Source: Escherichia phage vB_EcoP_SU10. Taken from it: DNA of 64,000 bases. This document shows positions 35,263-36,633 of this stretch, piece after piece (position 1 is the stretch's first letter; every line of letters begins with the position of its first letter). A program made the translations under genes and the position numbers. The notes beneath the pieces were generated by a model that saw only the letters and a program-made list of their open reading frames with translations, ran no database searches and was not told the DNA's origin. The stretch lies in sequence record NC_027395.1. One strand, given 5' to 3'.

Positions 35263-36633
35263 TTAGTTATTTGTTTCTACGTCAAAAGAGATTCCACGAC
35301 CCGCTTCATCAGCAAACCGAACTGTACGGGTTTGAGGTTCTAATACTTCAGGGTTGTTAGTAATAAAGCGATCAGCGAGACTGCGGCTGACAGCCTCAGC
35401 GAGTTCCTCATGAGAAGGAGTATCAAGATCGGAGAGACTGCCTACCACATCTTGGGCCACACCTTCATCAGTCCACACAGCCCTAACAGGTGCGTTGATA
35501 TCACCAACAGCGAAACCCTGACCAGAGAACTGACGTGCACTAACGTTGAAGCCGTTTGGTCTACCACGAGAAGGACTAGCCATCCATCTCTCCATAGAAT
35601 CACTTGTAATACCAAGAGCTTCTTCAAAAGATGTTCTACGAGTAGGGCTTACTCTTCGTGACTCTTGTGCTCGACGCATTGCAGGGGCTACAAACACCCC
35701 TTCAATTGCATTGTGTCGGTTAGGTTCCTCTTCTCGACCAAGCAGATCACCACCCGTGTTAGTCGTTAAATTTGTCAACCCCTCAGACCAATACGCATGA
35801 ATCTGACCAGAACCGTGAAGACTAGACATAATCTGAATCTCTTCATAAGGGATTCCAAAGAATCGACTCATGTCTCGGTTGACACAATATAGAGCACTTG
35901 TTGTATCTTCAATAAGAGAAACCTGACCTAATCCATTGACTAGATGACTAACTGGCTGAGGTGTGGGAAGATATCGAGTTTGGGCCATGTATTGATGTGC
36001 AACTGCTGGAGAGGAAAATCTCAACACTTGTGAGTTAGGCCACTTCTTGTGAACATACCTGATTTCACGACTAGAGACAACCACTGGACAAGGGGAAGTC
36101 ATAGCCAAATATCCGTGAGAAGTCATGAATAAGTTGTCAAGAGTCATCGCACCACGGCACATCATAGGAAAATTATCCAATACCTCTTCAATAGAAGTAG
36201 GATAATTAAACATGAATTGGATACGAACCCCATTCCACTGAAACTCAATAATATCAGTGAATGTTAATTGAGAACCCCCAGCATAGGATTCGTTTGTAGC
36301 TTCAGCAAGAAGTGATGCATATTCAATATCTTGTGACTCTAGCCATTCCTTCACATTACTTTCAATCTCCCGTCCAAGCTCTTGCCAACGATCAGTTGGG
36401 ATGAAAGTGTTTTGAGTTCTTGGTGTTTGTCCTCTGACAATAAAGATATCAATGTCATGTGGAGCTATGTTATTAAGGACAGCATCACGAACAGCCCCAC
36501 CAGTAATGATGGGACAGATACCATCTGGAATCAAGTTGTTGTTAATCAACTGTTCAATGAAGTGACGACCAACAGTGATATCAGGTTGTTGAGCAACCTT
36601 ATCTTCAATTTGGTTAATCGGGATAACAATCAT
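35263..36633 (-). CDS. nucleotidyltransferase of the CCA-adding/poly(A) polymerase type with unknown C-terminal domain
   Basis: IITGGAVRDAVLNNIAPHDIDIFIV = GGxVRD ... DxD head motif; start MIVIPINQ. Confidence 0.55.
   Translation of the reverse strand: MIVIPINQIEDKVAQQPDITVGRHFIEQLINNNLIPDGICPIITGGAVRDAVLNNIAPHDIDIFIVRGQTPRTQNTFIPTDRWQELGREIESNVKEWLESQDIEYASLLAEATNESYAGGSQLTFTDIIEFQWNGVRIQFMFNYPTSIEEVLDNFPMMCRGAMTLDNLFMTSHGYLAMTSPCPVVVSSREIRYVHKKWPNSQVLRFSSPAVAHQYMAQTRYLPTPQPVSHLVNGLGQVSLIEDTTSALYCVNRDMSRFFGIPYEEIQIMSSLHGSGQIHAYWSEGLTNLTTNTGGDLLGREEEPNRHNAIEGVFVAPAMRRAQESRRVSPTRRTSFEEALGITSDSMERWMASPSRGRPNGFNVSARQFSGQGFAVGDINAPVRAVWTDEGVAQDVVGSLSDLDTPSHEELAEAVSRSLADRFITNNPEVLEPQTRTVRFADEAGRGISFDVETNN

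Follow-up and report, generated by a model that had tools for sequence, protein, structure and literature searches.

A class II-like nucleotidyltransferase head with a lysine-free, predicted disordered tail among the replication genes of Escherichia phage vB_EcoP_SU10

Class II tRNA nucleotidyltransferases, the CCA-adding enzymes, and the poly(A) polymerases (PAPs) of the same family share a motif A of the form GGxVRD-x(8-10)-DxD. They recognise the ribose of an incoming nucleoside triphosphate (NTP) through motif B, RRD, and their motif D, EDxxR, is the protein template for CTP or ATP. Here we compare with these enzymes a nucleotidyltransferase (NTase) encoded by Escherichia phage vB_EcoP_SU10 (sequence record NC_027395.1), the whole analysed stretch of 64,000 nucleotides being referred to below as the window. 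A sequence-only reading of this DNA had taken the gene for one of CCA-adding or poly(A)-polymerase type, an interpretation that is partly supported by the present results: the head is class II-like, but the protein is probably not a CCA-adding or PAP enzyme. The reading that we favour, and to which we would give about an even chance, is that it is an active NTase of a phage-specific 'head-only' clade derived from the class II (CCA-adding/poly(A) polymerase) family. The gene and its diagnostic residues are as follows.

35263..36633, minus strand: NTase gene of the phrog_12715 family, a complete open reading frame (ORF) of 456 amino acids plus stop
36484..36501, minus strand: GGAVRD, residues 45-50, the glycine-rich part of motif A, read from the translation and aligning to the GGAVRD of E. 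coli Cca and of CCA enzymes in the PDB
36445..36456, minus strand: DIDI, residues 60-63, with the predicted metal-binding aspartates D60 and D62, read from the translation and invariant

The ORF runs uninterrupted on the minus strand from an ATG at 36633 to a stop at 35263-35265, and the translation bears out both motifs named in the sequence-only reading. Position 36633 is the real start, since an alternative GTG (extending the ORF to 36690), used by no homologue, would produce a 56-nt overlap with the upstream gene, and since every homologue begins MI(V/K)IP. Nor is the NTase motif a chance match. The phrog_12715 'nucleotidyltransferase' profile matches residues 1-456 of the protein, from a model 457 positions long, with an E-value of 9e-265, and G45, G46, R49, D50, D60 and D62 are invariant across the 25 members of our family alignment, which share 20-37% identity; the phrog_1614 profile also matches, at E 1.7e-7. 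Profile search and structure prediction, the two computational checks that had been proposed for the gene, returned an NTase family profile and a class II-like head.

The window DNA is 90-97% identical to that of Kuravirus phages (phiEco32-like podoviruses of the subfamily Gordonclarkvirinae). Orthologues of the NTase are 78-97% identical in around 70 Kuravirus phages, while those in the sister genera Suseptimavirus and Nieuwekanaalvirus show 32-40% identity over the first ~240-340 residues. The protein is made, one peptide having been detected in the proteomics of SU10 (PMC4281155). Records of related phages already label the gene "nucleotidyltransferase", and several GenBank records name the CCA-adding/poly(A)-polymerase type; the basic annotation is correct and is not new. 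To it we add precise domain boundaries, the finding that motifs B and D have been lost, homology to small phage NTases, the accessory status of the gene, and a lysine-free tail with conserved short motifs. We found no functional study of this NTase in the literature. Searches of the protein against NCBIfam and against the PADLOC models gave no match. The precomputed label PF26128 carried by homologues is not reported by Pfam at E <= 10 and was found in no paper.

The extent of the similarity to class II enzymes was assessed against a set of six, namely E. coli Cca, PAP I and four phage CCA enzymes. The NTase has the class II form of motif A. In profile-profile comparison of the NTase family with the class II set, however, only residues 38-109 were aligned (probability 67%, E 5e-5), and hhalign with E. 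coli Cca alone aligned just 25 columns. The Pfam PolyA_pol head domain, PF01743, covers residues 43-124 at 18.9 bits, short of its gathering score of 23, and close homologues, at 20.1-21.9 bits, also fall below that score. Among PDB sequences the single NTase protein retrieved nothing meaningful (best bL28, E 1.5); the family profile matched CCA enzymes there over the 22-residue motif A only, with E-values of 0.08-0.5. To call GGAVRD...DIDI 'diagnostic of class II', as had been done, is therefore too strong, motif A being all that is common to the two in an alignment of residues 38-109, with PF01743 below threshold.

Structure prediction divides the protein into a folded part and a tail, within which two further elements deserve separate mention.

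35809..36633, minus strand: folded part, residues 1-275, consisting of an N-terminal strand and helices, a Pol-beta-type head (~39-200) and a private helical subdomain (~209-274)
36253..36255, minus strand: D127, a candidate for the third catalytic carboxylate, where strand 125-133 begins; D or E fills this column in 100% of the 25 sequences
36043..36069, minus strand: R189-E190-x-x-Y193-x-x-K196-K197, the family signature helix, with Y193 and K197 invariant and an acidic residue in every member at E190
35266..35808, minus strand: predicted disordered tail, residues 276-456, with predicted local distance difference test (pLDDT) scores below 50, no lysine and ~10% arginine, and rich in insertions and deletions

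AlphaFold2 applied to the full NTase gave a confident N-terminal part and pLDDT values below 50 for residues 272-456. Re-predicted from the 25-sequence alignment, residues 1-275 reached a pLDDT of 90.2 and a predicted template modelling score of 0.86. The model has a strand at 39-44, a helix at 46-53 and a strand at 61-67, so that the hallmark of the Pol-beta superfamily, an hG[GS] loop and helix with a [DE]h[DE]h strand, is present in the form of GGAVRD (45-50) and DIDI (60-63). Structure comparison recognised the alpha/beta, palm-like Pol-beta fold. The closest structural relatives of the head are class II enzymes (PDB codes 3aql, 1miv, 4wby, 3h37 and 1ou5), and superposition on class II chains of 344-415 residues takes in 143-168 of the 275 folded residues. 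The C-terminal domain of ~250 amino acids described in the sequence-only reading does not emerge from these models: residues 1-275 form one compact fold, leaving only residues 276-456 (181 amino acids), which are predicted to be disordered. The other half of that description stands, in that the C-terminal region is nothing like a helical tRNA-binding body or tail; with the fold ending at residue 275, we found no helical neck, body or tail to hold the acceptor and T-arm of a tRNA.

All 25 family members share G45, G46, R49, D50, D60, D62, F64, Y117, I128, Q139, P156, Y193 and K197, and each has an acidic residue at the positions of E99, D127 and E190. E104 and E130, by comparison, are acidic in only 64% of members; hhalign places E104 opposite E57 of Cca. 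Motif B and motif D (the latter as D..R.LR..RF) are invariant in the class II set, but neither was found in the NTase family. The stretch equivalent to RRD reads LDNFPMMC, with only F/M-P and C conserved, and where EDxxR would be expected there is a conserved helix R-[DE]-x-x-Y-x-x-K-K. In the order of secondary structure elements in the model, this signature helix (R189-K197) appears to take the place of class II EDxxR. The ratio of nonsynonymous to synonymous substitution rates (dN/dS) among seven Kuravirus orthologues is 0.11 for head residues 1-222, a low value which, together with the invariant nucleotide- and metal-binding site, gives a pattern consistent with a functional active site. 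The class II nucleotide-selection motifs and the tRNA body and tail have thus been lost, while the GGxxRD...DxD site has been kept.

Proteins with a similarly reduced architecture are found in other phages. When 1.84 billion representative proteins were searched with a profile, only 27 clusters were retrieved at E<1e-30, and some 40 weaker matches proved to be proteins of 180-250 amino acids belonging to phrog_1614 ('nucleotidyltransferases'). These small NTases are encoded by phi92-like myoviruses, ICP1, podoviruses of Ralstonia, Dickeya, Pectobacterium, Caulobacter, Aeromonas and Pseudomonas, and others, with which matches in BFVD agree. Aligned by hhalign with 16 of them, the NTase family gave a probability of 99.4% and an E-value of 6e-22 over residues 21-204. 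The head is homologous throughout in phi92 gp158, ICP1 ORF223, the LKD16 nucleotidyltransferase and the NTase of Dickeya phage Mysterion, and common to all are GGAVRD, DIDIF, a strand with an invariant Q, F-[DP]-x-x-x-C and K-[KY]-x-P, the last of these falling at the signature helix of the SU10 protein. The small phage NTases end at ~170-250 residues, whereas in the phiEco32-like lineage the head has gained a ~70-residue helical subdomain and a long, lysine-free, predicted disordered tail of 20-210 residues. Given this homology and the shared motifs, the Kuravirus-type NTase can be described as a small phage NTase plus helical subdomain plus tail. To our knowledge no small phage 'PolyA_pol head' NTase has been characterised, and our search of the literature found no experimental characterisation of any small head-only phage NTase.

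If the protein is an active member of this head-only clade, then D60, D62 and D127 would bind two Mg2+ ions, and a nucleoside monophosphate (NMP) or its deoxy counterpart (dNMP) would be transferred from the nucleoside triphosphate to the 3'-hydroxyl of a nucleic-acid end, whether RNA or DNA. Such transfer would proceed without a template and without CCA specificity. Transfer of dNMP is conceivable because the ribose-reading RRD motif is gone. The helical subdomain and tail, rather than a tRNA-measuring body, would bring the NTase to its substrate or partner.

Several considerations weigh against such a reading. The role given to D127, like the matching of E190-x-x-Y193 with motif D, is drawn from conservation and from the order of secondary structure elements. 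The folded part is acidic (net charge -12; family median isoelectric point 5.0) and contains no recognisable nucleic-acid-binding module, which one would not expect if its substrates were polynucleotides, although class II head/neck fragments are likewise acidic; and enzymes of the Pol-beta fold include members that modify proteins and small molecules. Genomic context is similarly equivocal. Small homologues adjoin primase/helicase or DNA polymerase genes in Ralstonia phage WR2, Dickeya phage Mysterion, phi92 and FKP3, but those of ICP1 and Vibrio phage CoeS_P1 have no replication-gene neighbour, a polymerase lies within 6 kb at only one of the seven IMG/VR loci found in a search with five small NTases, and in T7-like genomes this region is a usual site for accessory genes. 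The link between small NTases and replication genes is therefore suggestive and not general.

The tail that distinguishes the phiEco32-like proteins contains two conserved stretches.

35776..35793, minus strand: YWSEGL, residues 281-286, a short motif with an aromatic residue, placed where the tail begins, that may serve for docking
35266..35385, minus strand: C-terminal 40 residues (RSLADRF...GRGISFDVETNN) of the Kuravirus tail, conserved

In-frame gaps occur in 41 of its 181 alignment columns, and dN/dS in the seven Kuravirus orthologues is 0.37; the tail is thus coding and under a constraint that is relaxed but real. Its GC content is 47-51%, against ~40% in the head-coding region, and its synonymous divergence (dS) is lower than that of the head (0.27 vs 0.43, same orthologues). 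Tails of distant relatives, which vary in length as noted above, are not alignable. The aromatic residue at the position of W282 is nevertheless present in 22 of the 25 members, within a motif [NQ]-[WYF]-[ST]-x-[GN]-[LR], and neither W282 nor L286 varies among the three Gordonclarkvirinae genera. At the other end, RSLADRF...ETNN can be aligned among Kuravirus members, and the last ten residues, G[IF]SFD[VMI]ETNN, are kept in all seven orthologues; the C-terminal 40 residues carry a weak prediction of a helix and a hairpin (pLDDT 40-47). Phenylalanine, tryptophan or tyrosine is found among the last three residues in 11 of the 25 members (P 0.0045, uncorrected for phylogeny).

The absence of lysine from the tail is a property of the family. 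The tails of the 25 members together contain 152 arginines and no lysine in 1463 residues, and the count is also zero in all 43 Kuravirus homologues inspected. Only four lysines, K12, K95, K196 and K197, are present in the window NTase, whose lysine-free run of 259 residues is the longest in the window (background 5.6% lysine). Other lysine-poor ORFs of the window are 6731..7762 (plus strand; 0.9% lysine, with a 250-residue lysine-free run), 9642..10610 (plus strand) and the ATP-grasp gene at 40317..41519 (minus strand). A hidden antisense gene within the tail (35534..35797, plus strand) was considered and rejected: it is stop-free in all seven orthologues but otherwise unsupported, and an effect of codon composition is the simplest explanation.

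The genes against which the position of the NTase is to be judged, and the one tRNA of the phage, are listed here.

36635..37192, minus strand: DNA polymerase 3'-5' exonuclease subunit gene, 185 amino acids (Pfam DNA_pol_A_exo1, phrog_403/38876)
34720..35253, minus strand: dCTP deaminase gene, 9 nt downstream of the NTase stop (Pfam DCD, E 3.6e-34)
26156..28000, minus strand: DNA polymerase (polymerase domain) gene, 614 amino acids, identified by its position, which is that of Bas91_0047 'DNA polymerase', and by tblastn to T7-like polymerases
53329..53404, minus strand: tRNA-Arg, anticodon UCU, the sole phage tRNA, with a genomic 3' CCA after discriminator A

The NTase gene lies in a tightly packed, same-strand run of replication genes. 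All three genera, as well as distant metagenomic relatives, preserve the order primase/helicase, exonuclease, NTase, dCTP deaminase. At its end the primase/helicase gene (37186..38976) overlaps with that of the exonuclease. A single base separates the TAA stop of the exonuclease gene from the NTase ATG (TGG AAA ATG TAA A ATG ATT), and in distant metagenomic relatives the two genes show a 4-nt ATGA overlap; judging from these junctions, the NTase gene is translationally coupled to that of the exonuclease subunit. It had been said to lie between the two polymerase halves. It does directly follow the exonuclease subunit gene, but the polymerase gene is ~7 kb and ~20 genes away, the exonuclease and polymerase genes of this split family-A DNA polymerase being ~8.6 kb apart.

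The split polymerase is reported to be common to the wider phiEco32/7-11 group (PMC9965538). No NTase is present in the Grimontviridae phage GAP52, in which the exonuclease gene is followed by a 37-codon ORF and then by the dCTP deaminase gene, nor, by its annotation, at the exonuclease-deaminase locus of 7-11. Since these sister phages have the same split without the gene, the NTase is an accessory insertion, which belongs neither to the split nor to the essential subunits of the replisome, and its placement is uninformative on the split.

Some further observations concern the same region. One metagenomic relative, 100 kb in length, carries an HNH/NUMOD4 homing endonuclease gene (9036..9524) between its NTase and dCTP deaminase genes; homing-endonuclease insertions at the NTase locus are mentioned in the BASEL paper (PMC11990801). 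GAP52 encodes an RNA ligase 2 (RnlB; JN882286.1 52877..53842) two genes upstream of its primase/helicase. Upstream of the replication genes of the window, at ~39196..47570 on the minus strand, is a cluster comprising gamma-glutamyl cyclotransferase-like (39196..39615), RimK-like ATP-grasp (40317..41519), glutamine amidotransferase-like (41963..43654) and amidoligase genes, these names deriving from the Bas91 annotation and from weak Pfam matches. Co-variation of the NTase with this ATP-grasp/amidotransferase cluster was ruled out, GAP52 having the cluster without the NTase. Three abutting minus-strand ORFs of 65-69 amino acids (33901..34110, 34110..34319 and 34319..34516), with similar C-termini of the type ...(S/G)KV(I/H/-)YY, look like tandem paralogues. 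An Rfam scan found no embedded RNA besides the tRNA-Arg, and promoter-like and terminator-like sites occur at chance level.

Other readings of the protein have to be weighed against an active head-only NTase acting on nucleic-acid ends. The likeliest of them, although we consider it unlikely, is that the protein might nucleotidylylate a protein or small molecule, or make or cap a signalling nucleotide, in the service of host takeover or counter-defence. MntA, GlnE, the aminoglycoside NTases and the CD-NTases are the Pol-beta branches cited as parallels. The window NTase is not placed among anti-phage defence NTases (CD-NTases, MNT/HEPN, AbiEii/MenT) either by PADLOC or by its best structural match.

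Rather improbable, in our view, is an enzyme that adds CCA, CC or A in tRNA 3'-end repair, or else a poly(A) polymerase; it would mend tRNA ends damaged by the host or by toxins of defence systems, or tail host RNA for decay. Such enzymes are the nearest structural relatives of the protein, and several GenBank records are annotated accordingly; in addition, the presence of RNA ligase 2 near the replication genes of GAP52, which has no NTase, hints at RNA-end repair across the group. Against this, RRD and EDxxR, invariant in the class II set including PAP I, are absent, there is no body or tail domain for tRNA, PF01743 remains below its gathering score, and the host already has Cca and PAP I. 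A need for CCA addition to the phage tRNA was ruled out, the CCA being encoded in the tRNA-Arg gene. The repair of CCA ends, one of the roles put forward in the sequence-only reading, is on these grounds disfavoured.

We regard as improbable to the same degree a pathway of covalent DNA modification or DNA-end modification, possibly shared with the dCTP deaminase, that would explain the resistance of Gordonclarkvirinae to restriction-modification (RM) systems. The BASEL authors found these phages to be markedly RM-resistant and suggested that the dCTP deaminase might form a modification pathway together with this NTase (PMC11990801). The window indeed retains many recognition sites of the tested systems (EcoRV 31, EcoKI 9, EcoP1I 86, EcoRI 9), those of EcoRV being over-represented (31 vs 16.5 expected) and those of EcoKI and EcoP1I near expectation. 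The position of the NTase gene inside the replication module, coupled to the exonuclease subunit gene, also favours the idea, and the loss of RRD is compatible with the use of dNTPs. However, modification of DNA bases is not known for any class II-type NTase, small homologues are present in many phages without reported modification, and an ordinary dTTP supply explains the deaminase, ThyX and thioredoxin being encoded as well. Furthermore, other sites are strongly avoided in the window: CCWGG occurs 3 times against 82 expected, GGATCC 0 against 10, CTGCAG 0 against 18 and GATC 139 against 252. Site avoidance of this kind is usually taken as a sign of DNA exposed to restriction. Modification of the DNA is thus possible but unsupported.

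More doubtful still is a bolder variant in which the tail, through YWSEGL and the C-terminus, recruits the NTase to the replisome, where it would nucleotidylate DNA 3' ends or bases, or replication intermediates, and in this way account for the RM resistance of Gordonclarkvirinae; we know of no such DNA nucleotidylation by class II-type NTases. That the protein is a catalytically inert scaffold, its fold and tail only tethering or regulating replisome proteins such as the exonuclease subunit, would suit the translational coupling and the long tail with its conserved docking-type short motifs, but is highly improbable, since the nucleotide- and metal-site residues are all invariant across very divergent members, as would not be expected of a dead enzyme, and replication in sister phages, whose polymerase is split in the same way, proceeds without the NTase.

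An active NTase of the head-only clade accordingly remains the reading that we prefer. At the level of sequence, the result refines an existing annotation and reveals no new system. Its interest lies in the fact that head-only relatives of CCA enzymes are widespread in the replication or early regions of phages, among them phi92-like, ICP1, T7-like and phiKMV-like phages and all Gordonclarkvirinae. The Kuravirus-type protein offers a convenient entry point to them, with phages now growing on E. coli K-12 (BASEL Bas86-94) and with a head, subdomain, docking motifs and tail that can be dissected. Its gene is, moreover, one of just two to which the BASEL authors were able to turn in seeking to explain restriction resistance. 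Once demonstrated, its donor and acceptor would give a whole phage protein family a function and, were the acceptor to be DNA, a new route of genome protection would have been found.

Among described systems, the MenT and minimal NTase toxins (MenT1, PDB code 8an4) add nucleotides to tRNA acceptor ends but belong to a different branch of the superfamily, and the window NTase shares with them neither sequence similarity nor a toxin-antitoxin context, nor does it give a PADLOC match. NP_344798.1 (PDB code 2la3), a stand-alone head of CCA-adding-enzyme type, matches far less well than full class II enzymes do and has neither a tail nor a known link to replication genes. For the tail, the acidic C-terminal tails of T7 gp2.5 and gp4, which dock on T7 DNA polymerase via a terminal aromatic residue, provide an analogy only: the NTase tail is likewise disordered by prediction and net acidic, and likewise belongs to a protein encoded among replication genes, but there is no sequence similarity, and the SF motif of the window NTase lies seven residues from the end. 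The class II enzymes themselves, PAP I included, continue beyond the head into a helical body and tail for tRNA; in the window NTase the same position is occupied instead by a predicted disordered tail of 181 residues.

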